This document shows positions 3,813 to 58,212 of a stretch of 64,000 nucleotides of DNA, piece by piece (position 1 is the first letter of the stretch; each line of letters opens with the position of its first letter). Source of the stretch: a virus (taxonomy: Duplodnaviria; Heunggongvirae; Uroviricota; Caudoviricetes). The stretch is taken from positions 73,310 through 137,309 of the IMG/VR virus record IMGVR_UViG_3300032334_002267; one strand, given 5' to 3'. The notes under the pieces were generated by a model that saw only the letters and a program-made list of their open reading frames with translations, was not told where the DNA came from and did no database searches. The position numbers and the translations under genes are program-made.

Positions 3813-4442
3813 GTGTTTTCTACATTTGGGGTTATGGTGAATAATTTCGATAACATAAGATCTCTTCTTAAATTTCCCAATGAGAACTCGTTCTACTTTC
3901 TCCAGATTTTAAAAAGGAGGAAGGATAATCCAGATCTGGGTAAGGACATGGTTCATATTGCAGATTACTACATTTATAGTCTTGAACAATTTGATGGACT
4001 AAAGCAAAGGATTATAGATCAATGTAACTCTGAGAACGCAAGAGCTTACTTTAGATTGAACGTTAGAGATGCTAGGAAGGTAGCTATGCAGGTTTTGAAG
4101 AGAACTGTGGACTATATCGTGTCAGAGAATTATCGAGCTGTAAAGAACGCATTTGCGTCTTGTACTGGTGAATATCACTCAGATCCAGATAAGACCTGGA
4201 TAGTTGATGTGGATTGGAAAGATGTCCCACAAGGAAAGGACCCCGATTTATACCTCAACAAGATCATAGCTAAAATACAAGAGCTTGTTTTTGAAACCGG
4301 AAAGGACGATACCATTTACACGTTAGTAACAAAAAACGGAATTCATGTAATAAGCAGGCCTTTTAATCTTAAAAAATTCAGAGAGGTTTATCCTCAGATT
4401 GACGTACATAAAGATAACCCAACAATTTTATATTGCCCTTAA
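3813..4442 (+). CDS. hypothetical protein
   Basis: 209-aa ORF; its stop overlaps the helicase start (TAATG). Confidence 0.45.
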   Translation: MFSTFGVMVNNFDNIRSLLKFPNENSFYFLQILKRRKDNPDLGKDMVHIADYYIYSLEQFDGLKQRIIDQCNSENARAYFRLNVRDARKVAMQVLKRTVDYIVSENYRAVKNAFASCTGEYHSDPDKTWIVDVDWKDVPQGKDPDLYLNKIIAKIQELVFETGKDDTIYTLVTKNGIHVISRPFNLKKFREVYPQIDVHKDNPTILYCP

Positions 4443-5890
4443 TGAGTAAAGCTAAAAAGAAGAAACCCATAATAGACTTAGAGTCACTTAACTCTGATCA
4501 GAGGAAAGCCTTTGATGAGTTAGTGGGATTTGTTTGTGATCCATTAGATGATAGCGTTTACGTTCTCAAAGGTTGGGCAGGAACAGGTAAAACCTACTGT
4601 GTAAGCGTTTTAGTTAGATATGTTCTAGATTCTATCCATCCCACACATAATTGGTACAAAATAGCAGTTACTGGACCGACTAATAAATCAGTAAGAGTGA
4701 TTAAGAAAACTAGTGGTCTTAAGAACGGCAGGGTTACATTCCAAACAATACACAAATTGCTAGGGTTAACAGAGAAGATCACCAGCGATGGAAAGCAGGA
4801 ATTTGTGAATCAAGGGGACTTCAAACCTCAGATCAATTCAATCAAGCTTCTCATTATAGATGAGGTGTCAATGTTAAATGATGACCTTTTTCACGAGATC
4901 CTAAAATATAGGGGAAAGATCAAGATCATCTGCATGGGTGATCCAGCACAAATACCTCCTGTCGGAAGACCTGATTGCATTCCATTTAGGGAGGAATTAG
5001 CCTCAGCATACAGAATCAAGACACTCGATCTTAAACGGATCATGAGACAGAAGGAGGGTAATGCTATCATAGAATCCTCTGTTGCTATCCGATCTGATTT
5101 GGGAGGATCTAAAAATCCGGTTGAACCTGTTACTAAACTAAATCCTAATGGCGAAGGCATAGAATTTTTGAATCTTAATGATCCGGAGATAAGAAGAGGA
5201 TTTTCAGAAAGACTGAAGGAGTATTTCGTGACCGAGGATTTCAAAAAAGATTCAGAGTACGCCAAGATCATTGCATGGAGAAATAAAACTGTTGCAACAA
5301 TGAATGACGTTATCCGTAGAGTTATCTACGGAGACGAGGCTTTGGGCTCTAAGATATTGGTTGGCGAGAAGCTAATTGCTAACAGTCCGATTATTCAAGG
5401 CGAGACCGTAGTTCTGAACACCAACGAGGAGTTTACAGTGGAAAGCTTTACAATCAAGAGCGACGATCTACGCTATCAGGTGTCAGATCACCCCGACGCA
5501 GATCCTTTAGCAGTAACTCTCAAATACTACGACGCAGTAGTTTCGTATATAGATGACGAAGACGATAAGATAAAGATTAACATAGAGATCCTTCATGAAG
5601 ATAGCGAGGGAGAATTTAAGAAGTTAGCAAACATTTTTAAACTAAGAGCTATCGAGAAGAAAGGCAAGAATAAAAGTTGGATCATATACTACAATTTCCT
5701 TAGAAAATATGCTGATGTGAATTATGGTTATTGCATAACCGCCCACAAATCGCAAGGAAGTACATATAACACAACATTTGTACTTGAAGATGATATCGAC
5801 ATGAATTGGGATATCGTTGAGAGAAATCGAATTAAGTACACTGCATACACTAGAGCAAGTAGAAAAGTATATGTTCTAAAAAGGTTTTAA
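4442..5890 (+). CDS. Dda/RecD-like SF1B DNA helicase
   Basis: Walker A GWAGTGKT, Walker B LLIIDEVSM, C-terminal AYTRASRKVYVL; ATG at 4442 preferred over the TTG at 4433. Confidence 0.8.
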   Translation: MSKAKKKKPIIDLESLNSDQRKAFDELVGFVCDPLDDSVYVLKGWAGTGKTYCVSVLVRYVLDSIHPTHNWYKIAVTGPTNKSVRVIKKTSGLKNGRVTFQTIHKLLGLTEKITSDGKQEFVNQGDFKPQINSIKLLIIDEVSMLNDDLFHEILKYRGKIKIICMGDPAQIPPVGRPDCIPFREELASAYRIKTLDLKRIMRQKEGNAIIESSVAIRSDLGGSKNPVEPVTKLNPNGEGIEFLNLNDPEIRRGFSERLKEYFVTEDFKKDSEYAKIIAWRNKTVATMNDVIRRVIYGDEALGSKILVGEKLIANSPIIQGETVVLNTNEEFTVESFTIKSDDLRYQVSDHPDADPLAVTLKYYDAVVSYIDDEDDKIKINIEILHEDSEGEFKKLANIFKLRAIEKKGKNKSWIIYYNFLRKYADVNYGYCITAHKSQGSTYNTTFVLEDDIDMNWDIVERNRIKYTAYTRASRKVYVLKRF

Positions 5891-5945
5891 TTTTGAAACA
5901 TTCAACTCCAAATAAGTATAAAAATCGGATAAAATATTTTTTATT

Positions 5946-6188
5946 ATGATATGCCCAGCATGTAAAGAACAAGGATCAAAATCTCAAGTACAAACTGAAG
6001 GTGTTATGACAACACTTATGGGGTATGCAACGTACTACGATGAAGAAGGTAGACAACATCACCACGATGATAATTCAAGAACAACGATAGGAGAGTGTAG
6101 TAATGGCCACGTTTTTTCTTATAGATATGAGAATAGCTGTTGGTGTGGATGGGTAGGTAAAACCGAAGAATATAAGATTATAAAATAG
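5946..6188 (+). CDS. small zinc-ribbon protein
   Basis: MICPACKEQG...CWCGW. Confidence 0.4.
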   Translation: MICPACKEQGSKSQVQTEGVMTTLMGYATYYDEEGRQHHHDDNSRTTIGECSNGHVFSYRYENSCWCGWVGKTEEYKIIK

Positions 6189-6279
6189 TCAGGTGGCGCA
6201 ATGGTAGCGTGTTGGTGAGTAATCCGCTTACGGCGGAACCAAAAGACAAAGGTCACAGGTTCGAATCCTGTCCTGACTA
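6187..6279 (+). tRNA. tRNA-like gene, 93 nt, non-canonical
   Basis: Acceptor AGTCAGG/CCTGACT; D-stem GCGC/GCGT; T-arm ACAGG-TTCGAAT-CCTGT; candidate anticodon arm TCCG-CTTACGG-CGGA (UAC, Val) but the D region is about 8 nt too long. Confidence 0.45.
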
Positions 6280-6378
6280 CAAAAAGTTCTTTGAATAATA
6301 CTAAAAACAGACCCACGCTTCCCATCTAGAAGGATAATGAGAAGAATAATACGTCTTTTAAGGTCTGTTTTTAAAAAT

Positions 6379-6493
6379 AGTCAGGTGGCGGAAGGGTAGA
6401 CGCAACAAGTAAGCTAACGAAGTAATTCGTGAGGCCATTAATTCCGAGATGTAAGAGAAGTACATCGTACCCGTTCGAATCGGGTCCTGACTA
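6379..6493 (+). tRNA. tRNA-like gene, 115 nt, with about 40 nt of extra internal sequence
   Basis: Same acceptor AGTCAGG/CCTGACT; T-arm ACCCG-TTCGAAT-CGGGT; internal ACGAA-GTAA-TTCGT tetraloop hairpin. Confidence 0.4.
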
Positions 6494-6710
6494 CAATGAG
6501 TAAGAGGTACTCAGAGTCTTTAATCCAAGACTTAAACAATGGGTAGGGTATTGGACTGGACATCCTTAAACGCCAGTCTCTTTGGGTTAAAGCTAGGTAA
6601 CAGAGGCTCCAAGTAGTTTGACTAATTTTAAGAGGATAAGACCCACAGGTTTATTGAAAGAAAGAAAACCGATATATCTACTCACCAGTAATCTCAAGGT
6701 GGGGTAACAT

Positions 6711-6817
6711 AGTCAGGTGGCGGAGTGGCTTAACGCTGAGCATACATAAAGTCCTTGGGTGTGGTATGTATGATACCCATACACGAGGGCTCACAGGTTC
6801 GAATCCTGTCCTGGCTA
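6711..6817 (+). tRNA. tRNA-like gene, 107 nt, with an internal extended hairpin
   Basis: Acceptor AGTCAGG/CCTGGCT (one GU pair); T-arm ACAGG-TTCGAAT-CCTGT; internal CATACAT...ATGTATG stem. Confidence 0.4.
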
Positions 6818-6887
6818 CTGACAATAACAACTCTGGGGTCAGGGTTTTGTTGCACCGAAAGGTGGTGTTTTCAACGGTTCGAGTCCG

Positions 6888-6984
6888 AGTCAGGTGGGCG
6901 TAATGAGGGGATGGTTCCCGAATCCAGTTAAATGGTTGCTTAATCCGTCTTGAACGGTACTCGGTTCGAATCCGACCCTGACTA
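6888..6984 (+). tRNA. tRNA-like gene, 97 nt
   Basis: Acceptor AGTCAGG/CCTGACT; T-arm TCGG-TTCGAAT-CCGA. Confidence 0.4.
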
Positions 6985-7349
6985 CTAAAAATATTATCCG
7001 ATATTATTTTTTTTTATTCGAAGTATGTTCATATATTTGCAACTCAAAAGTATAAAAGTAATTAGATTCTTTATAAAGCTGGGTAACATACTTACTTATG
7101 TGATATTGTGAAAATGTGGGTTCAATTCCCATCTCAGCTGCTAAAACTAAATATTATGAATAAATCAAAGAGCATATTGTCTATCATTTTATTAGGTTTA
7201 CAAGACAAGCTTATCGAGGCCAGCGAGATTCGACGCTATGAAAATGCAATATTAAACATTAAAGCAGCTTCAATCGCAATTGCTATTAGCGTGGGTTTGT
7301 TCATAATACTGATTTAACACTTACTAAAGAACGATAAAAAAAATAAACT

Positions 7350-13078: not shown

Positions 13079-14218
13079 ATGAAATACGATTTAAACACTC
13101 TTAACGCCTATATCCAGAGGGGTCTTTTAGAAAGGAATCCACACCCGACATTACCGCTTGATATCTATAATTATTCAAGGGAATGTCAGTTCACGGAGTC
13201 TTGGGACGAGATCACTTTAAATATGAGAGGCACTGTTTTAGACCGGGAGGGAAATGTTATTGCTAAACCATTCCCCAAGTTTTTTAACATGGAGGAGCAT
13301 AAGCCAGAGGAAATACCTAATGAGGAATTCGAGGTTTTCGAAAAATTGGACGGGTCTCTAGGCATACTTTTCCATTATGCCGATGAGTGGCACTTAGCGA
13401 CCAGAGGATCTTTTGCATCTGAGCAGGCAATTAGGGGTAGAGAAATCCTAAAAAAATACAGATATGAGAGACTGATCCCAGGATTTACCTATCTGTTCGA
13501 GATCATCTATCCCGAAAACAGGATCGTGTGCAACTATGACTATGAGGACTTAATACTTCTTGGGGTAATTGATAACAAAGATGGTTATGAACTTAGAATC
13601 CACCATAATAGCATACATTTAGAGGGTATTAGATTCGTAAATTTATATAACAACTTGGGATTTAAGATGGTTAAGAAGTACGATGGGATAGACGATTATA
13701 AGAAGCTTAAGAAAATGATAGACGGAGAATCTGAGGGATTTGTTGTTAAATTCAAATCCGGACTTAGAATGAAGATCAAAGGCGAAGATTATGTTAGATT
13801 GCATCGACTATTGACCAATTTCTCGAATGTCGACATCTGGGAGCTTTTAAAAGAAGGAAGAAACATTGAAGAATTTCTAGAAAGAGTTCCTGACGAATTT
13901 GACAAGTGGGTTAAGAAAACAATACACAGTCTAGAATATCACCGATGTAAAGTCGAGGAAAGAGCGGAAAAGATCTATGAGTATTTTAGATATGGAAGAT
14001 ATTGGGATCGAGAGAATGAGCCTACTAAGAAAGAATTTGCTGAACATCTAGAATTTTGTAATGTTGAGCCCAGCATAAGATCCATATGTTTTGCTATGTG
14101 GGACGGAAAGAAATACGATCATATAATCTGGAAGATAGTAAAACCAAAGTATCAAAAGCCATTTTGGAATAGAGAGGAAGAAATACCAGTGGATTCAAAA
14201 TGGATTAAAAAAGATTAA
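13079..14218 (+). CDS. rnlA: RNA ligase 1 (T4 RnlA-like)
   Basis: Nucleotidyltransferase motif KLDGS; N-terminal NMRGTVLDREG...PFPKFFNMEEH closely mirrors T4 Rnl1 CRGIMFEMDGE...PMEKFFNLNEN. Confidence 0.8.
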   Translation: MKYDLNTLNAYIQRGLLERNPHPTLPLDIYNYSRECQFTESWDEITLNMRGTVLDREGNVIAKPFPKFFNMEEHKPEEIPNEEFEVFEKLDGSLGILFHYADEWHLATRGSFASEQAIRGREILKKYRYERLIPGFTYLFEIIYPENRIVCNYDYEDLILLGVIDNKDGYELRIHHNSIHLEGIRFVNLYNNLGFKMVKKYDGIDDYKKLKKMIDGESEGFVVKFKSGLRMKIKGEDYVRLHRLLTNFSNVDIWELLKEGRNIEEFLERVPDEFDKWVKKTIHSLEYHRCKVEERAEKIYEYFRYGRYWDRENEPTKKEFAEHLEFCNVEPSIRSICFAMWDGKKYDHIIWKIVKPKYQKPFWNREEEIPVDSKWIKKD

Positions 14219-19526: not shown

Positions 19527-20951
19527 ATGAAGATTGATGTTATATGTTTAACCAAAACTGATGATGTCCGTTATTTTGACATGTGTTCAAAAACAATATC
19601 GACTCTATTTGAATCTCAGCCTCAAACTGAATTCAATTTAGTTTTAGTTGAATCGTCAAATTCACCAAGGTGGGAATACTCAGAGATTAAAGCGGGAAAT
19701 GTTAATAATTCGATAAAATACATAACCCCTAATGAGAAGTTTGCGTATAATAGATTTCTTAATATAGGAATGACACACACCGAAAATTCAGACTGGTTAT
19801 TAATCATAAATAACGATCTTATATTCGAAACAGGGTGGTTTGATAGAATATTGGAGGCTTCTAGATCTAGACCCGATATAGATTCTTTCAGTCCATTTGA
19901 ACCAGATTTCCATAATAAATATTATACAGGATGGGCTAGTTCAGAGATTAATGAAAGTTATGAAGTTGGATTTGGTGTTTGTGGATGGTGTATTCTGATG
20001 AAAAAATCTGTTATTGATAGAATAGGTAAATGGGACGAAAGATTTTTACACTGGTATCAGGATAATGATTATGCAGAGAATCTTAAACATCACGGGATTA
20101 AACATGCTCTCATAAAATCTTCAATCGTTCACCACCTAACTGAAAGCAGTAAAGATCTTTTGGATGATGAATTAGGGATGACTCTAGGTATGAAAAAAGT
20201 TTTCGATGATAAATGGATGAATAAAAAGAAACCTAGGATAAAGATTTGTCATCTGTTACTGGATCCAAGTCAGCCACAGGATATCCCTTCTGATAAATGG
20301 GATTCTGTTATGGCTAAACAGAAAGCTTCGGTTTCTGCATTCGAAAAAATAGCAAGTAACTTTGCTTGCTACTCCCAGAGGTATTCCGTTGTTAATAGAA
20401 CGGAATTACCATCAGAGAATTGTGCACAGCCAGAAATAATAGATCGATCCAAAGATTTTATTAACAATCCTCCTGTGCTTTCATATGGGCATTATGGTGC
20501 TTACGTTGCTCACAGATCAGCTGTAGAGGATTTTGGAAATTATGATGCACTGATTATTGTTGAAAGCGACGTTGTATATGATCTAAGGCCAGAAGAATTT
20601 ACCAAGAAGATATACGATGCTTATGAATTCGGGTTAGCTAGATCTGGAGCTATGTTTACATTCGGAGCTGTTAGCTACGGCATGGCATCGAGAGCTTCGG
20701 TTAGTGACACTGCAATCTATATGGGTGATTACAAACAGATAGACCATTTTCTCTGTGCTCACTGTTATATGGTCTTTAAATCAGAAAAAGAAAACATTCA
20801 GAATAAATTAGCTAATACCGGATGGCATGCATGGGATATTTGGCTTTATTGGAATTACGATATGAGAGTTCCTATATTTGCTACAACAGCACCTCTTGTA
20901 CATGAGCCGGATGGATATTCCGTTATAGATTACCAGAAAAAAATTACCTAA
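19527..20951 (+). CDS. hypothetical protein, possible glycosyltransferase
   Basis: 474 aa; NNDLIFETGW DxD-like motif, weak. Confidence 0.35.
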   Translation: MKIDVICLTKTDDVRYFDMCSKTISTLFESQPQTEFNLVLVESSNSPRWEYSEIKAGNVNNSIKYITPNEKFAYNRFLNIGMTHTENSDWLLIINNDLIFETGWFDRILEASRSRPDIDSFSPFEPDFHNKYYTGWASSEINESYEVGFGVCGWCILMKKSVIDRIGKWDERFLHWYQDNDYAENLKHHGIKHALIKSSIVHHLTESSKDLLDDELGMTLGMKKVFDDKWMNKKKPRIKICHLLLDPSQPQDIPSDKWDSVMAKQKASVSAFEKIASNFACYSQRYSVVNRTELPSENCAQPEIIDRSKDFINNPPVLSYGHYGAYVAHRSAVEDFGNYDALIIVESDVVYDLRPEEFTKKIYDAYEFGLARSGAMFTFGAVSYGMASRASVSDTAIYMGDYKQIDHFLCAHCYMVFKSEKENIQNKLANTGWHAWDIWLYWNYDMRVPIFATTAPLVHEPDGYSVIDYQKKIT

Positions 20952-22093: not shown

Positions 22094-23188
22094 ATGGAAA
22101 GAAAATTAGCTTCGATACAGAGAATTGGAAAAATTCTTCCTATCGGGGGAGCGGACGCAATAGAAATAGTAACCGTGAATTCATGGAAGGTTGTCTCAAA
22201 GAAAGGGGAGTTTAACGAAGGAGACCTTTGTGTCTATTTCGAGATAGATTCTTTCTTACCTGTGAGGGAAGAGTTTGAATTTCTAAGAAAATCTTCGTTT
22301 AAAAAAATGGGAGATAAAGAGGGATTTAGATTAAAGACAATAAAACTCCGAGGACAAATCTCTCAGGGACTTTGTCTTCCTCTTTCAGTTTTAAACAGTA
22401 AAGAGTTTGAAGAAATGGTAGTAGGGATTTCAGAGCAGCCTTGGGGAAATCAGTTACAATTAGGTCCTTATGATGATGCAATGATTATAGAGGAGGGGAT
22501 GGATCTTACTGACTATCTTGGGATATTAAAATATGAACCTCCGATCCCAGCTTCATTAGCAGGAAAGGTAAAAGGCTATTTCCCAGGATTTATCAGAAAG
22601 ACCGACGAGGAGAGAATCCAGAACATGACTAAAGAATTCGATAGCATGCGTGATAAGCACTATTACGTAACAGAAAAACTTGACGGAAGCTCTGCAACAT
22701 ATTATTTTAATAATGGTGTGTTTGGAGTTTGTTCAAGAAATTTAGAGCTATTAGAAACAGAGGAAAATACGTTTTGGAAAGTTGCCAGAGAACTTTTCAT
22801 CGAAGAGAAATTGGGAACTCTTGAAGGTAACTACGCGATTCAGGGAGAACTCATCGGCGAAGGGATACAGGGAAATCCATATAAGATTAAAGGTCAAACG
22901 GTTAAAATATTCAACATGTTCAACATAGACACCCGGGAGTATTTGGGACTTGATGATATGATTAGAATACTAGAAAAGATAAATGTTGACGATAAGCCAT
23001 TAGAGCTCGTTCCGGTGATTTATTACGATTATAAACTTCCTTCGACCATAGAGGAGGTTTTAATTCAAGCAGAGGGTAAATCTAGGTTGAACGAACAGAC
23101 AGAAAGAGAAGGATTGGTTATTAGGAATAAAGATAAATCAATATCTTTTAAAGCCATTTCTAATAACTTTTTACTTAAAGCAGGATAA
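22094..23188 (+). CDS. second ATP-dependent RNA/DNA ligase-family protein (KxDG) with a roughly 190-aa N-terminal extension
   Basis: Motif I VTEKLDGSSATYYF. Confidence 0.6.
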   Translation: MERKLASIQRIGKILPIGGADAIEIVTVNSWKVVSKKGEFNEGDLCVYFEIDSFLPVREEFEFLRKSSFKKMGDKEGFRLKTIKLRGQISQGLCLPLSVLNSKEFEEMVVGISEQPWGNQLQLGPYDDAMIIEEGMDLTDYLGILKYEPPIPASLAGKVKGYFPGFIRKTDEERIQNMTKEFDSMRDKHYYVTEKLDGSSATYYFNNGVFGVCSRNLELLETEENTFWKVARELFIEEKLGTLEGNYAIQGELIGEGIQGNPYKIKGQTVKIFNMFNIDTREYLGLDDMIRILEKINVDDKPLELVPVIYYDYKLPSTIEEVLIQAEGKSRLNEQTEREGLVIRNKDKSISFKAISNNFLLKAG

Positions 23189-23253: not shown

Positions 23254-25317
23254 ATGAAACGACTATCTTTATTGGGGATCTTTATGATTCTATCTATTTT
23301 TGCAAATGCAAGAAAATTCTATTTCAGTAGTTCAACGGGAAACGATAACTACACCAGCGATCAGGCTCAAAATCAATCGACTCCATGGCAGAGTCTTAAA
23401 AAAATCCAGTATTACACCACATCCGGAAGAGTTTTATTTCAACCCGGAGACACCCTGTTATTTAAAAGGGGAGATGTTTTTTCAAACGGTAATAATGCTT
23501 ACGTTAGCGTGTTCTGGTGGAACGTTCCAAACAATCCATCACAGTCTAGTCTCCCACAGTATTTTACAGCTCCTAGCGGAACATCGACATCTCCGATAGT
23601 AATAACAAACTACGGTGATCCTGCTCTACCACTTCCCAATTGGATACATCCCAATAACACAGTCCCAAGTACATCGGATAAGAATGTAATTGGGTTTGCT
23701 GGAGTAAGATGGATAATAATAGACGGTATTCAATTCAATGACACCAGATTCCCAGTAGCAGACAAAACAAACCCGGCCTACACAACCGGAGCAATCATAT
23801 TAGGGGAATACACTAAATCTAAATTAGTTAATGGTGTTATCATCCCAGGCTCAGCAAGTGACACAGCAAATAGAAAATACTATGTTAAGGATTTTGTAAT
23901 TAGGAATTGTGCATTTAGTAATATAAGTTATGCTTTTCAAGGAATAGCTGCTGAAAGAGCCACTTTAACGAATAACAGAATTACAAATCTAAAATCCACA
24001 ACGGATACGTCTGGAACTTACGATGTCATGGCAGGAGCATTTGAAGGAATGAATTGTGACAACTGCGAGATCAGCTATAATTACATAAAAGGTGCTTGGG
24101 CAAAATCAGGTAGAGTTAGTTCAACATTTGGATTAGGCGGGGTTGGTCTTGACATGTTTAACTGCAATAACACACGAGTAGTTTATAACACTTTTATAGA
24201 TTGCAGTGGTGTATTCGAAATGGGTAATATTGATAATTTAGACACGACAGCTGGTTGCAAGTATGTTACATTCGCATATAATAAAGTAATTAATTGTGGA
24301 CAGATGGGGTATATCCATGCTTCAACAGGATCTTTTGTTGGTAACAGTAGAAACATAGGAATATACAACAACGTTTCCATCAATAACAACAGTTCAAGAA
24401 TGAATGGTCCTAATTTCGGAAGCGACATTTACGGTGATGGACAGTCTTTTATGCAATGGTGGTTCTTTAGGAATAGATATAAGTGTCCTAACAATACTTT
24501 ACCTGTAACAGACAATACATGGAGTAACCCGATTCATCCATCCGTTTGTAATTACGGAGGACATAGGGCTACCGTCCAATACTCATCTGACAATATTAGA
24601 GGAAATGCTGATACGCTTGTTGATAGCAGAAATAACATATTCTATTCAACTGTGGGTGATCAAATGATCTATGGTCATTCTAGAATAAAATACAAGCACT
24701 CTAACAACATCTATTACATAAACGGTGGATTGATAAATCCAACATCTCTTGGAGGAACTTTAGAATCAGGAGAGAGGATTATTAGCACCAAATTATTTTC
24801 AGATACAACTGCAGCCTTTCCAGAAGATTGGGATTTACATTTGGTAGACACCAGTTATGGGGTATCTCATGGACTTATCATACCGGGATTAACTAAGGAT
24901 TTCGGAGGAATGCCTATCTCTTCTACACCTAGCATCGGACTGTATGAAAAATACAATATAGTGAGCACTCCAAATTGTACATTCACCTATGGTCAGTGGT
25001 CAACATGTAATGGAAGTTTCCAATCCAGATCTTACACATCATCTCCCTCAGGATGTAACGGAACGCCTCCTTTAGACAGCATTCAAAGAACGTGCAATAA
25101 CAACGTGGTTATTTCATCTTTTTACTACAGTTCAACCAATAAGCGTATTTATATTAAATGTAATGTTCCTGGCGTGATGGTCATCACAAATGTTTCCGGA
25201 AATATCACCAGAACAGTAAGCTATAATGCAAACGGATATTTTATAAACGTTAGCACGTTACCTTCTGGGACCTATTTTGCATCAACGTATGGAAGATCTA
25301 TAACTTTTATAAAATAA
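23254..25317 (+). CDS. secreted right-handed beta-helix (pectate-lyase-like) protein with a T9SS-type C-terminal sorting domain
   Basis: N-terminal signal peptide; NxxI/N-rich parallel-beta-helix repeats; C-terminus ...VSTLPSGTYFASTYGRSITFIK resembles Por_Secre_tail. Confidence 0.55.
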   Translation: MKRLSLLGIFMILSIFANARKFYFSSSTGNDNYTSDQAQNQSTPWQSLKKIQYYTTSGRVLFQPGDTLLFKRGDVFSNGNNAYVSVFWWNVPNNPSQSSLPQYFTAPSGTSTSPIVITNYGDPALPLPNWIHPNNTVPSTSDKNVIGFAGVRWIIIDGIQFNDTRFPVADKTNPAYTTGAIILGEYTKSKLVNGVIIPGSASDTANRKYYVKDFVIRNCAFSNISYAFQGIAAERATLTNNRITNLKSTTDTSGTYDVMAGAFEGMNCDNCEISYNYIKGAWAKSGRVSSTFGLGGVGLDMFNCNNTRVVYNTFIDCSGVFEMGNIDNLDTTAGCKYVTFAYNKVINCGQMGYIHASTGSFVGNSRNIGIYNNVSINNNSSRMNGPNFGSDIYGDGQSFMQWWFFRNRYKCPNNTLPVTDNTWSNPIHPSVCNYGGHRATVQYSSDNIRGNADTLVDSRNNIFYSTVGDQMIYGHSRIKYKHSNNIYYINGGLINPTSLGGTLESGERIISTKLFSDTTAAFPEDWDLHLVDTSYGVSHGLIIPGLTKDFGGMPISSTPSIGLYEKYNIVSTPNCTFTYGQWSTCNGSFQSRSYTSSPSGCNGTPPLDSIQRTCNNNVVISSFYYSSTNKRIYIKCNVPGVMVITNVSGNITRTVSYNANGYFINVSTLPSGTYFASTYGRSITFIK

Positions 25318-25368: not shown

Positions 25369-25698
25369 ATGAAAAATAAAATTATTATACTTCTGATATC
25401 AATTCTTGGATTGGCAAGCTGCAGGGAGGAGATGAACGAAAAACAGGAGCCCTATAATGAGTTACGATCAATCGGGATTGAAGAACTCGATACCTTTGAT
25501 GAAAGCTATGATAGGTACTACCAAATTTACACCTTAGAGGGATGTGAGTATATTGTAGTATCTCCCGGGAATAGTCATTTTACCTGGGGATCACATAAAG
25601 GAAATTGTAAAAATCCAATTCACAAGATGGAGCAAAGAAATGACAGCACAGAGAAACAAAAAAAATCACGGACGAATAATGACGGCGATCAGTATTAA
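25369..25698 (+). CDS. lipoprotein
   Basis: LLISILGLASC lipobox. Confidence 0.45.
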   Translation: MKNKIIILLISILGLASCREEMNEKQEPYNELRSIGIEELDTFDESYDRYYQIYTLEGCEYIVVSPGNSHFTWGSHKGNCKNPIHKMEQRNDSTEKQKKSRTNNDGDQY

Positions 25699-25728: not shown

Positions 25729-26763
25729 ATGAAAATAATTATAACAGGAGGAGCAGGGTATATTGGTTCTCATACAGCAGTAGAAGCTCTCCGTGCAGGG
25801 CATGAAGTAATCATATTGGATTCTTTAATTAATTCGTCATACGAATCGATTGAGAGGATAGAAAAAGCAGCAGGAAAAGCTCCTATATTTCACAAGGTAT
25901 CTCTACTGGATTCTCCACTAGATATCTACGATACCATAGGAGAAGATTCAATAAGGGCTGACGCTCTTATTCATTTTGCTGCACTCAAATCTTCTCCAGA
26001 GTCAGTGGGAAATCCTTTGACTTATTATCGAAACAATATAGATTCCTTGCTCACTTCCATCAGACTGTGCGAGATCCTATGTATCAAGAATTTTATATTC
26101 TCAAGTTCATGCACCGTTTATGGGCAACCCCAGTATCTGCCTATAAATGAATCACATCCGATATCAAAGGGTACAACTCCTTACGGATCTTCAAAAGTTG
26201 TTGGTGAATGGATATTGGAAGATTGCACAGCTATCAAAAAATTAAAATCAGTAGCCCTCAGATACTTCAATCCCGCTGGAGCGGATGCTTCTGGATGGAT
26301 TGGTGAAATGCCAATAGGTAAACCAGGAAATCTCGTTCCTATCATAACTCAGGCAGCTGCAGGTATCTATGAGCAGCCAATAAAAGTTACAGGGGTTGAC
26401 TATCCAACTCCAGACGGATCGGCTATCCGCGATTATATTCATGTAACTGATCTGGCTCAAGCGCATTTAGCTTCATTGGAATGGCTGAACAAACAGGAAC
26501 TTCACACCTATGATGTTTTTAATATCGGGACAGGAAAGGGAACATCTGTTTATGAAATGATCGATACCTTTGTTTTAGATGTTGAACCTGATCTAATCGT
26601 CTGTGAACAAGCAGACAGAAGACCAGGAGATACTGCAGAAGTTTGGTGTGATCCATCGAAGGCTAAATCTACTCTAGGTTGGGAGGCTAAGCTAACAACT
26701 TTAGATATATTAAAGAGTGCATGGGAATGGGAACAGAGGATTAGAGGTATTGGTTTTAATTAG
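25729..26763 (+). CDS. galE: UDP-glucose 4-epimerase
   Basis: MKIIITGGAGYIGSHT Rossmann motif, YGSSK catalytic motif, 344 aa. Confidence 0.9.
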   Translation: MKIIITGGAGYIGSHTAVEALRAGHEVIILDSLINSSYESIERIEKAAGKAPIFHKVSLLDSPLDIYDTIGEDSIRADALIHFAALKSSPESVGNPLTYYRNNIDSLLTSIRLCEILCIKNFIFSSSCTVYGQPQYLPINESHPISKGTTPYGSSKVVGEWILEDCTAIKKLKSVALRYFNPAGADASGWIGEMPIGKPGNLVPIITQAAAGIYEQPIKVTGVDYPTPDGSAIRDYIHVTDLAQAHLASLEWLNKQELHTYDVFNIGTGKGTSVYEMIDTFVLDVEPDLIVCEQADRRPGDTAEVWCDPSKAKSTLGWEAKLTTLDILKSAWEWEQRIRGIGFN

Positions 26764-27217
26764 ACCTGTATTTAATCTGGAGTTCAGCGTGTCTGATTAG
26801 ATAGCTTTTAACCCCTGGAACTTTAAGAAGAAAATCTCTTTCGTACTGATAACAAAAGACTTCCTCTTCATTCTCACTACATGACATCCTTAAAGATCTA
26901 AGTTTAAGATGGAGAGACTCGTGAACTATCACAGCACAGATGTTATCCAAGTCTTCAATGTTCATGTCTTTGGCCGAAATTATGATGGTTCCTCTTATTA
27001 GAGAATCACCAGAGTTTGTTGAGTATGGTCCGTTCCAAAATGAGATCTCCTGACAGTAATCATTTACAGTTTTATAGTAGTTGCTGTCTATGGATTTGAT
27101 TTTCTGGAGTGCCTCAGAAACTCTAAGATCCCAAAAATTGCCTCCCTTGTCTATTTTTATCTGGGAATAAGCTATAGACGGAATAAAAACAAAAAATAAA
27201 ACTATAAATCTAATCAT
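26756..27217 (-). CDS. secreted HExxH protein (putative metallopeptidase)
   Basis: Signal peptide; VIVHESLHLK. Confidence 0.4.
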   Translation of the reverse strand: MIRFIVLFFVFIPSIAYSQIKIDKGGNFWDLRVSEALQKIKSIDSNYYKTVNDYCQEISFWNGPYSTNSGDSLIRGTIIISAKDMNIEDLDNICAVIVHESLHLKLRSLRMSCSENEEEVFCYQYERDFLLKVPGVKSYLIRHAELQIKYRSN

Positions 27218-42950: not shown

Positions 42951-43991
42951 TTAGAATCCTAAGTCTGCAAGATCTGCAGATGCGTCCGAACCTTCTTTAT
43001 CGTAATCTTCAATTGTTTTCCAGATAGCAGGAAGCTCCTTCTTAATATGATCTATTATTTCAAACTTCTTAGGGTGATCGGTTATAGCACCATAAGCAGT
43101 TGAAACGTCGGCTAATGAGAATAAATTTCTGATTACGTTAGACTTATCGGACCATCTATCTTCCCAACTTCTAAGTAAAGCATTTTTAAAACTTAAATTA
43201 TATTGCTTCATTACCTTAAACGTGTTTACAAGAGAATCATAAATTTTTGGAGCAATTCCATTCTCCTCAAAATTTACAGTTCCTTGAGGGATTGGAATAT
43301 CGCTTATATCTGTGATCTGATTTTTAGAAAAATCCATGTTTCCTTTAATAGAAGTCGTGCCAGGTTTAAGTCCTTTTAGATTCTTAAGTTTATTGTTACT
43401 AACATTAATGTTATTAGAAATATCTTCCGGACATCCTTCCAATGTTTCAAGATCATTATTTTGAGCCATAAGAGATCTAACTGATTTAGGAGCTCCTGAA
43501 AGATCCTCTAAATTATTATAGCTACAGATTAAACTACCGTTTATCTTTTTAGGTAATCCTTCTAATGAAGTTAATCCGCAATGTGAGCAATCAACTTTAC
43601 CTCCGATTTCACTAGGGGCAAATTCTAAACTTTTTAGCTTCTTGTTATAAGAGCAATTGAAATCAGCTCCAACTGTTAAAGGTCCATTCTTTAAACTTGT
43701 TAATTTATTGTAGTCGCAATCAAAGCTACCGCCAACTTCTTCTGGTGCACCCTTTAGACCATCTAAGTCGTTGTGGCTACAGTCAAAGTTTCCTGAGACT
43801 GTTCCAAATAGAATTCCTTTAAAATCCGATAGATCGTGATCGGAGCAATCCAAGTCACCTTGGATGTCTATTCTTCTGGTTAAGGAGTTGTACTCCCATT
43901 TACCGTCAACCACCTCTTCGAGGAATTGTTCTTGCTCCTCAGTTAAATTTGATGAGGATTCGAAAATTTTAAAATCTAGTATTCTTTTCAT
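42951..43991 (-). CDS. LRR-repeat paralog-family protein (ends ...ADLADLGF)
   Basis: About seven 22-23-aa repeats FxCSxNxLxSLxGAPxxVGG; conserved termini. Confidence 0.6.
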   Translation of the reverse strand: MKRILDFKIFESSSNLTEEQEQFLEEVVDGKWEYNSLTRRIDIQGDLDCSDHDLSDFKGILFGTVSGNFDCSHNDLDGLKGAPEEVGGSFDCDYNKLTSLKNGPLTVGADFNCSYNKKLKSLEFAPSEIGGKVDCSHCGLTSLEGLPKKINGSLICSYNNLEDLSGAPKSVRSLMAQNNDLETLEGCPEDISNNINVSNNKLKNLKGLKPGTTSIKGNMDFSKNQITDISDIPIPQGTVNFEENGIAPKIYDSLVNTFKVMKQYNLSFKNALLRSWEDRWSDKSNVIRNLFSLADVSTAYGAITDHPKKFEIIDHIKKELPAIWKTIEDYDKEGSDASADLADLGF

Positions 43992-49945: not shown

Positions 49946-50047
49946 CGGTCAGGACAGGATTCGAACCTGTATCTTGCCTTTCTGTATCGTCCCACTACTG
50001 GGTTGATTGGGGGGTCGAACCCCATGTTGCCATTACACCACCTGACC
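49946..50047 (-). tRNA. tRNA-like gene, about 102 nt, same acceptor family (GGTCAGG/CCTGACC); possible Ser(CGA) with a very long variable region
   Basis: Reverse complement gives GGTCAGG-TG-GTGT-AATGGCA-ACAT-GGGG-TTCGACC-CCCC-[38 nt]-ACAGG-TTCGAAT-CCTGT-CCTGACC. Confidence 0.45.
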
Positions 50048-56894: not shown

Positions 56895-58196
56895 TTAAAA
56901 CCCAAGGTCAAGCAAATCCGAAGTGGCTCCGTCTGGATCTACTTTGTCTTTAATCTTATTCCAAATATCAGGCATATTGTCTTTGATTAATCCGTAGATC
57001 TCAAACTTCTCATCTGGTGGAAGAGATTTAGATAGAAGGTAATCAGACATATCTTTAGCACCTTTAGCCCCTAGCATTGACAGAAGCATTGTTTTTAATC
57101 TGGGTTTGTCAACTGGTTTATCTTTATCATACTCAAGATCTTCAATTTCTTTTAACTTGCTCATGACAGTTTTGATAAATTCAGCACCGCCCTTTTTATT
57201 CCATCCCTGCTTCCAATCCAATATGAAGAACCCACGCTCGGAATTCCAATTTTTAATAAAGAAATTTCCAACACTTTCTGGTGCTTCTGCAAGTGAGACG
57301 AGAGGATTATCCGCACATTGAAAAGAACCCTCCACCACCTCTGGAGCTCCTTCTAGGGTTTTAAGAGAATTGTACCCGCAATTAAAAATTCCTTTTATTC
57401 TCTTGGGTGCTCCCTCAAGCGAGGTAAGGGCATTTTGTGCACAATTGAAATATCCACCAACTTCCTGAGGTGCTTCCTTAAGCGAGGTAAGGGCATTTTG
57501 TGCACAATTGAAATCCCCGCCAACCTTTCGGGGTGCTCCCTCTAGAGATTTGAGTCCAGCACTCTGGATATTAAAATAACCACTCACCTCTCCAAACTTA
57601 ATCCCCCTAAATCCGAGTTTGTTTTCAGCGATTGATGAAAAATTTCCAGAGATATCAATCTCCCCTGTGGTTTCGTTGAACTCCCACTCTCCCTTTGTTG
57701 ATTTATTCATCCAGTTAACCACTGATGGAGTGAGTCCGTGTCTTTTGTATAATTCACCCATGGGATCAGTAATCCCAGTTCTGCTTACAACACCCTCTCT
57801 AACCTTTGGCAGATCCAATAACACATCGATCATCTCAGGATTGGCCTTCATGAAGTCGTCTAGGTCTTTAACGGGAATTAAAGAAATGCCTTTTTTGGCG
57901 AATCTTTTAATCACGTAGTAGAGTAGGCTTGACATTATCTTTGGTCCAGAGGTCATTGAAGATTGATACACGTAACCCTGATCTGACGTTCTCACATAGC
58001 CACCCGCAGTGAGTCTGTGAACAACTTTAGAATATGAGGACCCGATTGAAACAGTGCCTTTGCTGTTTGTTCCTAGAATTTCAAATCCCATTAGTTGTAG
58101 GAGTTTCCACTCAGGCAGATCCTGCCAGTTGCCAGCCCAATCCTCGGATGTGATGGCCTTGGATTCGAATAAGGAGAAAGGTAGAAGATTTTTCAT
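56895..58196 (-). CDS. LRR-repeat paralog-family protein (ends ...SDLLDLGF)
   Basis: Start at MKNLLPFSLFES. Confidence 0.6.
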   Translation of the reverse strand: MKNLLPFSLFESKAITSEDWAGNWQDLPEWKLLQLMGFEILGTNSKGTVSIGSSYSKVVHRLTAGGYVRTSDQGYVYQSSMTSGPKIMSSLLYYVIKRFAKKGISLIPVKDLDDFMKANPEMIDVLLDLPKVREGVVSRTGITDPMGELYKRHGLTPSVVNWMNKSTKGEWEFNETTGEIDISGNFSSIAENKLGFRGIKFGEVSGYFNIQSAGLKSLEGAPRKVGGDFNCAQNALTSLKEAPQEVGGYFNCAQNALTSLEGAPKRIKGIFNCGYNSLKTLEGAPEVVEGSFQCADNPLVSLAEAPESVGNFFIKNWNSERGFFILDWKQGWNKKGGAEFIKTVMSKLKEIEDLEYDKDKPVDKPRLKTMLLSMLGAKGAKDMSDYLLSKSLPPDEKFEIYGLIKDNMPDIWNKIKDKVDPDGATSDLLDLGF

Positions 58197-58200
58197 ATTG

Positions 58201-58212
58201 CTATATATCGCA
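58201..58212 (-). promoter_or_regulatory. TGCGATATATAG box between the stop and start of tandem paralogs
   Basis: Same 12-mer at 55958-55969 and 56883-56894; variants at 59405-59415, 47963-47974, 44506-44515 (-), 44547-44556 (+), 53246-53258 and 60497-60509. Confidence 0.5.

Follow-up and report, generated by a model that had tools for sequence, protein, structure and literature searches.

A stretch of 64,000 nucleotides from a virus of the Caudoviricetes (IMG/VR record IMGVR_UViG_3300032334_002267, positions 73,310 to 137,309), hereafter called the window, carries a gene for a protein of 687 amino acids (687-aa protein) that is built like a type IX secretion system (T9SS) cargo and that is predicted to fold largely as a beta-helix. 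An earlier reading made from the letters of the window alone, the sequence-only reading, had drawn attention to this open reading frame (ORF) and had delimited it exactly, in coordinates as well as in length. The gene is complete, and an identical protein is encoded on a syntenic phage-like metagenomic contig of 122.5 kb (L001; ERZ28594134, scaffold_13). From its N- to its C-terminus the protein consists of a signal-peptide-like segment, a beta-helix body, a module with four conserved cysteines (4-Cys module) and a C-terminal domain (CTD), the positions of which are listed in Table 1.

The N-terminus starts with MKR, followed by a hydrophobic core of 13 residues (mean Kyte–Doolittle value 2.48) and an AxA-type cleavage site. 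It is the only hydrophobic segment of the protein. Signal peptides were judged throughout by such sequence features, without a dedicated predictor. A signal-peptide-like N-terminus is present in 113 of the 120 closest homologues, and the region drifts in sequence (42% identity to the family member of L003) yet stays hydrophobic, in agreement with the signal peptide that the sequence-only reading had proposed. The richness in Asn, Thr and Ser that it had described is borne out as well, as these residues account for 30.3% of the protein, whereas the remaining window ORFs with a length of 150 amino acids or more reach 18.5 ± 4.9%.

The body of the protein is modelled as a right-handed parallel beta-helix. 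AlphaFold2 (AF2), supplied with the family alignment, produces strand triplets with high values of the predicted local distance difference test (pLDDT) for residues 20–380, while residues 390–575 are modelled poorly and with low confidence. In Foldseek comparisons with the PDB, the matches of the beta-helix enzyme type range from E 1e-11 to 1e-4. The best are GH136 lacto-N-biosidases (LnbX 5gqc, BsaX 7v6i, TnX 7v6m and ErLnb136 6kqt; E 1e-11 to 1e-9), followed by PL6 alginate lyases, a rhamnogalacturonan lyase, RbmB from Vibrio and the tailspike of phage HK620. In the viral structure library BFVD, unnamed beta-helix proteins of uncultured phages come first, and named tailspikes appear only at about 1e-5. 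In addition, a ladder of asparagines (N245, N276, N312, N343 and N372/373) with a spacing of about 30 residues and a repeated xYNxx[IFV] motif is invariant, also when chromosomal homologues at 23–32% identity are included. Taken together, the AF2 model, the Foldseek matches and the invariant Asn series confirm the beta-helix with Asn ladder that had been read from the sequence. The likeness to pectate lyases and tailspikes that had been added to it stands in part: the helix is of a glycanase or lyase type, but in structure it is nearer to GH136 and PL6 than to tailspikes.

Besides the asparagines, residues D163, E322, K344, E507 and D549 are invariant in the same comparison with the chromosomal homologues. 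They are candidate functional residues. A search with Pfam and NCBIfam leaves the body without any family match, CAZy-type families included, the CTD models being the sole matches in the whole protein. A profile of the family retrieves no solved enzyme from the PDB sequences, only noise (coronavirus spike, WD40 SMU1). Among the family members, P0075 alone matches the LnbX model of NCBIfam, locally and over its N-terminal cap (E 1.8e-11). The GH136 (5gqc, 7v6i, 7v6m, 6kqt) and PL6 (7o84, 6qps) enzymes share the right-handed fold with the phage protein (best Foldseek E 1e-11 to 1e-5), but there is no family-level sequence match, the TM-scores reach only 0.33–0.43 and no LnbY-like chaperone gene is adjacent. 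The modelled fold makes it reasonable, though unproven, to read the body as an enzyme that cleaves glycans, whether as hydrolase or as lyase.

The 4-Cys module that follows the body has no Pfam match and resembles, by eye, a thrombospondin-type-1 repeat. It is duplicated in P0015, P0023 and P0035. Usually it accompanies the CTD in the form found here, hereafter the phage-type tail, and it does so onto other bodies too (P0129, P0153).

The sequence-only reading had likened the last 70 residues or so of the protein to a T9SS CTD. The Por_Secre_tail models are indeed the only ones that match, they do so at the C-terminus, and the homology is supported by profile comparisons, but the direct matches stay below the cut-offs. 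PF18962 matches residues 642–678 with 17.7 bits (E 0.0046) against a gathering threshold of 27, and TIGR04183 matches residues 637–679 with 14.8 bits (E 0.021) against a cut-off of 23. The search with TIGR04183 / Por_Secre_tail that had been put forward as a check therefore failed at the curated thresholds, and because of these scores the homology needed further tests.

Firstly, residues 616–687 modelled alone by AF2 form a seven-stranded beta-sandwich (pLDDT 96.4), and T9SS CTDs are seven-stranded sandwiches (Lauber 2024, PMC10994853). When this model is compared with the PDB by Foldseek, mirolase (8qb1), translocon-bound NucA (8glk_D) and PorZ (5m11) rank 3rd, 8th and 19th, which is consistent with, though not decisive for, identity as a CTD. 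Secondly, 12 of 23 relatives individually match PF18962, with a best E of 1.9e-5. Thirdly, a profile of the phage-type tail was aligned by hhalign with 12 canonical CTDs, all of them from homologues in Chitinophagaceae genomes and above the Pfam cut-off (best 45.7 bits), which gave 41 in-register columns (E 1.9e-4, probability 47%). Fourthly, an exhaustive search of 1.84 billion proteins with a profile built from the phage-type tail alone returned 135 matches at E <= 1e-3. Among them are 53 single-stretch matches located at the C-terminus or no more than about 15 residues from it. PF18962 is found in 35 of these 53 (best 1.1e-16), and these PF18962-bearing tails sit on classic passengers of the T9SS type, i.e., Big_2, BspA-type leucine-rich repeat (LRR), reprolysin, S8, GH53, hyaluronate lyase and PKD proteins. 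Other searches with the tail profile yielded less. A word-indexed protein search gave only eight matches, mostly fragments, and the PDB sequences gave only noise. A scan of IMG/VR gave only further members of the beta-helix family, because the degenerate pattern is specific to that family.

Comparison with an 82%-identical gene from an unrelated phage context gives a nonsynonymous divergence (pN) of 0.14 and a synonymous divergence (pS) of 0.73 for the tail, and a pN of 0.09 and a pS of 0.71 for the body. The ratios are indicative only because synonymous sites are saturated; they suggest that the tail is under purifying selection, as is the body. The G-x-Y motif, which in CTDs precedes the last strands, is present and invariant (G672-T-Y674). 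The conserved CTD motifs specify the fold and not the contacts with the translocon, the sole conserved contact with PorV being a Lys near the C-terminus (Lauber 2024, PMC10994853). The 687-aa protein ends in ...TFIK (K687), while canonical CTDs have this Lys one or two residues earlier. Because of the PF18962 matches in relatives, the hhalign alignment, the exhaustive search and the purifying selection, the tail is, as far as its sequence can tell, a genuine but divergent T9SS type-A CTD.

A protein search retrieved 209 relatives of the 687-aa protein, and 19 IMG/VR viral contigs carry relatives. The contexts of close relatives that were fetched are all phage-like (contigs of 84 kb, 167 kb, 205 kb, 141–168 kb and 320 kb), with dense small ORFs lacking a Pfam match and with genes for family-B DNA polymerase, ArdC-N, SegE, thymidylate synthase and RecA/UvsX-like proteins. 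The long contigs of the family (100–320 kb) were expected to be bacterial, but they proved to be phage-like. The window has phage hallmarks as well, namely a Dda-like helicase (about 28% identical to helicases from many unrelated phages), T4 Rnl1-like and PHA02142-type RNA ligases, a DUF5824 protein, a CHAP endolysin, a DNA-polymerase exonuclease subunit and several phage-only PHROGs. Judged by these genes, the replicon is a phage. The neighbourhoods of family members differ between phages (a thymidylate synthase gene adjoins the one in L003), and the gene therefore behaves as an independent module.

The same CTD stands at the very end of 78 of the 120 closest relatives, with Lys or Arg as the last residue, and 72 of these 78 combine it with a signal-peptide-like N-terminus. 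The phage-type tail also occurs on other bodies. One of these is a PL6 lyase of the Chondroitinase_B type (E 1.5e-59), which has a tail with 51% identity and its own signal peptide and is encoded immediately upstream of a family member. Others are an RCC1-like/PKD protein and further bodies, encoded on short contigs of phage-like character in the vicinity of genes for Tad6 or S-adenosylmethionine lyase. In three IMG/VR viral contigs (L093, L094 and L099), a protein of 567 amino acids with a canonical CTD is a candidate for another phage-encoded T9SS cargo. On the 205-kb phage-like contig, the region just upstream of the family member encodes a type-B T9SS signal (CHU_C) among PKD domains, followed by an L,D-transpeptidase, and phages of this type appear, from such gene content, to carry clusters of surface-directed proteins.

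Cellular relatives point to the host. In a scan of species-representative genomes, they are found overwhelmingly in metagenome-assembled genomes (MAGs) assigned to Chitinophagaceae/Sphingobacteriia, among them chromosomal contigs of Ferruginibacter (5.97 Mb) and of other Chitinophagaceae (4.69, 2.3 and 1.4 Mb). A few short contigs, probably mis-binned, stand apart in that their MAGs carry the labels Streptomyces and Comamonas. The chromosomal homologues have a signal peptide, a homologous body, stalks of SprB/Ig repeats and a canonical CTD that scores 31–46 bits against the cut-off of 27. A cellular counterpart is formed by two tandem genes of Ferruginibacter (MAG JASGIL010000001.1, locus L021), which encode proteins of 1522 and 1241 amino acids. 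Such chromosomal proteins share with the 687-aa protein the homologous body, the motif set, the Asn ladder, the signal peptide and a type-A tail. In contrast to the compact phage version, they are two to three times longer and have long SprB/Ig stalks, their CTD contains PNP and exceeds the cut-off, and they have no 4-Cys module. Closer relatives (56–58% identity) are encoded on the MAG contigs L015 and L016 as tandem giant paralogues. Those on L016 have as neighbours an initiating phosphoglycosyl transferase of the WbaP type (E 5.6e-39) and a methyltransferase, which marks the region as a surface-polysaccharide locus. On the Sediminibacterium MAG contigs L054 and L057, body homologues of 465 amino acids have a lipoprotein-type signal (...INGC) and no CTD, which would make them the lipid-anchored form of this enzyme in a likely host genus. 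The distribution of cellular homologues supports a host among the Chitinophagaceae, in line with the pointer to Bacteroidetes in the sequence-only reading. Chitinophagaceae are a T9SS-bearing lineage. The homologue locus, together with the genes for a GalE-type epimerase and a glycosyltransferase near the phage copy, suggests as substrate a glycan of the cell itself, either on its surface or extracellular.

These elements point to a phage-encoded enzyme that is exported first by Sec and then by the T9SS and that acts on host surface or extracellular polysaccharide, a reading that we consider rather probable. In silico, the predicted protein has the complete architecture of such a cargo, in that a Sec-type signal peptide precedes the passenger and a type-A CTD forms the extreme C-terminus. 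Because the protein is built like a T9SS cargo, we infer that it would be exported by the infected cell before lysis. The host ribosome would make the pre-protein during infection, Sec would export it and signal peptidase I would cut after Ala19. The SprA/PorV translocon would then recognize the folded protein via its CTD and carry it across the outer membrane, after which the CTD would be removed, as by the PorU sortase in T9SS secretion, and the enzyme released or attached to surface lipopolysaccharide. Outside the cell, it would cleave surface or extracellular polysaccharide of the host. The phage would probably benefit in that receptors or matrix would be destroyed on the infected cell as well as on its debris. 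This would cover superinfection exclusion, the avoidance of progeny loss by re-adsorption and an easier release through exopolysaccharide. Substrate and benefit are the least certain of these steps. The sequence-only reading had likewise preferred export to attachment of the protein to the phage tail; a tail component is indeed unlikely, as discussed below, whereas T9SS export is read from the architecture only.

Several observations weigh against this reading. Both curated models score below their cut-offs, and the Foldseek values of the tail to solved CTDs (E 0.016–0.046) are not significant for so small a sandwich. The PNP motif that canonical CTDs have in their first strand is absent, with F-Y-Y-S-S in its place, and the last position is Arg and not Lys in most relatives. 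Other C-termini are found in 42 of the 120 relatives (35%; among P0016–P0120). In 20 of them, this is one SprB repeat, then a run of basic residues and a terminal Cys (...RRRRNC, ...SSVTCP), and in 22 it is a short basic tail (...NSFRTRKRFVQKL, ...IIKSRLKFKN). Both may be other localisation signals. The SprB-bearing members were considered as possible carriers of the non-homologous type-B CTD, by which one T9SS signal would have been exchanged for another, but this is not supported, as they have no CHU_C or type-B match. The same sandwich is located internally in at least seven related proteins (P0152, P0159, P0162, P0165, P0170, P0176 and P0249). It lies, for instance, at residues 158–225 of a protein of 898 amino acids with a C-terminus that looks papain-like by eye, or ahead of an SprB repeat. 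For the enzymatic part, the poorly modelled residues 390–575 and the candidate status of the catalytic residues count against it. Finally, a literature search found no experimental proof of secretion for any phage-encoded CTD protein.

The main rival, which we regard as unlikely but deserving to be weighed, holds that the protein is exported by Sec without being a T9SS substrate. The sandwich and the Cys module would then constitute a carbohydrate- or surface-binding module, and the enzyme would act in the periplasm or at the outer membrane, or be freed only at lysis. It draws its support from the internal sandwiches, which indicate that this domain can be a plain structural or binding module, and from the third of the family that lacks the sandwich tail. 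The sub-threshold scores, the missing PNP, the generic nature of a small sandwich fold and the lipoprotein-like Sediminibacterium homologues without CTD fit it as well. However, the sandwich is at the very C-terminus, ending in Lys or Arg, in the 687-aa protein and in the 78 relatives mentioned above, the matches of the tail profile include true terminal CTDs from many kinds of cargo, and the chromosomal proteins with a homologous body are T9SS cargo of the canonical kind.

It is less probable still that the protein is exported by the T9SS but is not catalytic, acting instead as a beta-helix adhesin or surface shield that masks receptors for superinfection exclusion. Beta-helix adhesins such as PfbA (4mr0) are among the fold matches, and the lack of a sequence match to CAZy-type families and of more than candidate catalytic residues would suit such a role. 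Yet enzymes (GH136, PL6, rhamnogalacturonan lyase, RbmB) head the fold matches, the five charged residues are invariant across homologues with 23–32% identity, and the same tail is found on a PL6 lyase encoded in a related viral contig.

That the protein belongs to the virion, as a tailspike or depolymerase with the C-terminal sandwich as receptor-binding domain, is very improbable. Tailspikes such as the HK620 tailspike protein (TSP; 2x6x) and CBA120 TSP2 (6w4q) are likewise beta-helix proteins of phages, with glycans of the host surface as their targets, and the fold is shared, with E values of about 1e-4 for HK620 TSP in the PDB and about 1e-5 for several tailspikes in BFVD. They have, however, no signal peptide, they possess an N-terminal particle-binding domain, they are assembled in the cytoplasm and they are encoded among tail-module genes, none of which holds for the 687-aa protein. 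The latter has a conserved, cleavable-type signal peptide that is followed at once by the beta-helix cap, without an N-terminal virion-adaptor domain, and cellular enzymes are structurally closer to it than tailspikes. It has no match in PHROGs, and a tblastn search of 50,697 phage records (INPHARED) found none either. In the window, no structural genes are among the neighbours. Upstream of the gene are those for IMPDH/GMP reductase, a GT2-like glycosyltransferase, the DUF5824 protein, a CxxCxxCC protein and an RNA ligase; on the downstream side, the gene is followed by a small ORF of lipoprotein-like type and by the GalE-type epimerase. Elsewhere in the family, the neighbours vary between phages. 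The signal peptide, the lack of a PHROG tail match, the lack of a match among isolated phages and the neighbours in nucleotide and sugar metabolism thus make a tail component unlikely. Lastly, a cellular gene on a mis-assembled or mis-binned contig, suggested by the homologues in Chitinophagaceae MAGs, is hardly credible, given the phage hallmarks and phage-only PHROGs of the window, the identical protein on the syntenic 122.5-kb contig, the 19 viral contigs, the phage-like contexts of the close homologues sampled on long contigs, and the fact that chromosomal homologues are only 23–32% identical and differ in architecture.

The reading as a T9SS-exported enzyme can be extended, tentatively, beyond this protein. 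It is conceivable, although we would not expect it on present grounds, that large freshwater Chitinophagaceae phages carry a phage-lineage-specific, divergent subclass of type-A CTDs as a portable cassette for a set of enzymes exported by the T9SS before lysis. This subclass would possibly be defined by the lack of PNP, a terminal Lys or Arg and, usually, a preceding thrombospondin-like 4-Cys module. As its passengers one could envisage, with the same reserve, the beta-helix family, the PL6 lyase, the RCC1/PKD protein and a protease-like body. If true, virulent phages would hijack a secretion system of their host.

The concept of phage-encoded T9SS cargo is already known, as the 'Cryophage' has three variable genes with T9SS type-A sorting domains, encoding an endoglucanase, a GH39 protein and a PA14 protein, which were termed a unique case of such cargo, presumably hijacking the host system (Bellas 2020, Nat Commun, PMC7468147). 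Later reports or experimental tests of phage-encoded T9SS cargo were not found in our literature search. The Cryophage genes and the gene described here have in common that they are phage-borne and encode a glycan-active or glycan-binding passenger ending in a type-A sorting domain. The Cryophage cargo genes are flexible and variable, and the beta-helix family similarly varies between phages in neighbourhood and C-terminus. Both cases are known from sequence alone. They differ in habitat (cryoconite versus freshwater lakes) and in passenger, the beta-helix family being unannotated. Moreover, the CTD of the present protein is divergent and sub-threshold, follows a 4-Cys module and is reused on several bodies. 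A functional analogy may be drawn with RbmB of Vibrio cholerae (9ozl), a beta-helix polysaccharide lyase that acts on the extracellular polysaccharide of its own producer and is encoded in an exopolysaccharide locus. It is a fold match at E about 1e-4, and close homologues of the phage protein adjoin the WbaP-type initiating transferase. However, the two proteins have no sequence relationship and use a different secretion route, and the analogy is one of inferred function only.

This analysis adds a beta-helix family that is abundant in large freshwater phages and had no annotation. The divergent CTD subclass, which lies below curated thresholds, is apparently phage-associated and is reused on several passengers, is new as well, and curated CTD thresholds would miss a viral subclass. 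If the export reading is true, infected Bacteroidota cells would be temporary factories working for the virus, in that they would alter their own surface and the polysaccharide matrix around them. Phages would then act outside the cell before lysis, and they might in this way destroy receptors, exclude superinfection, escape from exopolysaccharide or alter the carbon turnover of lakes. The family is a convenient test case, being abundant (209 matches) and compact, with clear cellular counterparts and sampled phage-like contigs of up to 320 kb. The divergent tail provides a natural experiment on what the T9SS translocon recognizes, and the family could be a useful marker to assign uncultivated phages to Chitinophagaceae hosts.

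Table 1. Positions of the beta-helix gene, its parts and further features; positions without a contig name are those of the window.
Feature	Position	Strand	Basis or remark
Complete gene of the 687-aa beta-helix protein, stop included	23254..25317	+	ORF listing; ATG start; identical protein on L001
Signal-peptide-like N-terminus, residues 1–19 MKRLSLLGIFMILSIFANA, predicted cleavage ANA/RK	23254..23310	+	Sequence features
Right-handed parallel beta-helix body, residues 20–565	23311..24948	+	AF2 model, Foldseek, invariant columns
4-Cys module, residues 575–614, C-x9-C-x15-C-x12-C, invariant W582, Q590, R592	24976..25095	+	Family alignment
Divergent T9SS type-A CTD (as assigned from sequence), residues 616–687, G-T-Y at 672–674, terminal K687, no PNP	25099..25314	+	Profiles, AF2, selection
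GT2-like glycosyltransferase	19527-20951	+	Present in the window
Rnl1-like RNA ligase	13079-14218		
PHA02142-type RNA ligase	22094-23188		
Lipoprotein-like ORF, 109 amino acids, signal ...LGLASC	25369-25698	+	No Pfam match
Signal-peptide ORF, 153 amino acids, HExxH-like VHESLH motif	26756-27217	-	No Pfam match
Rfam tRNA matches, unusual length of 93–107 nt	6187-6279; 6711-6817; 49946-50047	+; +; -	
Repeat proteins, 'GAPxTVGGDFxCxxNxxTSLxGAP' units, LRR-like look	58213-59400; 42951-43991	-; -	Both match phrog_21719, unknown function
PL6 Chondroitinase_B-type lyase	L092:4432-6198	+	IMG/VR contig; immediately upstream of family member
567-aa protein, signal peptide, CxxCH motif, repeated domains, canonical CTD (29.7 bits)	L093:9545-11245; also L094, L099 (8474-10186)		IMG/VR viral contigs
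PKD_6, CHU_C (PF13585, type-B T9SS signal), PKD_4, then YkuD L,D-transpeptidase	L008-L010, ~4366-6992		205-kb phage-like contig, just upstream of family member

Within the window, neither a phage-type tail nor a canonical CTD is carried by any other ORF. A scan for sigma-70 promoters around the beta-helix gene gave no more than the shuffled expectation, with a model that is unsuited to Bacteroidota promoters, and a terminator hairpin 3′ of the gene was sought and not found. The gene for the GT2-like glycosyltransferase is missing from L001, where DUF5824 directly follows IMPDH; its presence or absence is a flexible-gene indel near the beta-helix gene. The GalE gene is flanked by two small ORFs of the exported type, the lipoprotein-like ORF of 109 amino acids and the signal-peptide ORF of 153 amino acids, and the region of the former is called as ORFs of 66 and 115 amino acids in L001.

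Further from the gene, the three long Rfam tRNA matches may be intron-containing or long-arm phage tRNAs. ARAGORN finds only the first of them, as a tRNA-Asp with an odd 'atc' anticodon. As two RNA ligases are encoded near these matches, a theme of tRNA repair is suggested. Towards the 3′ end of the window (about 58000–64000), the GC content climbs from about 0.36 to 0.44–0.52. The part between 62.4 and 63.1 kb, for which Rfam gives no match, contains only overlapping, junk-like ORFs rich in Pro, Arg and Ser on both strands, and may represent a non-coding element, inserted foreign DNA or a join made during assembly.

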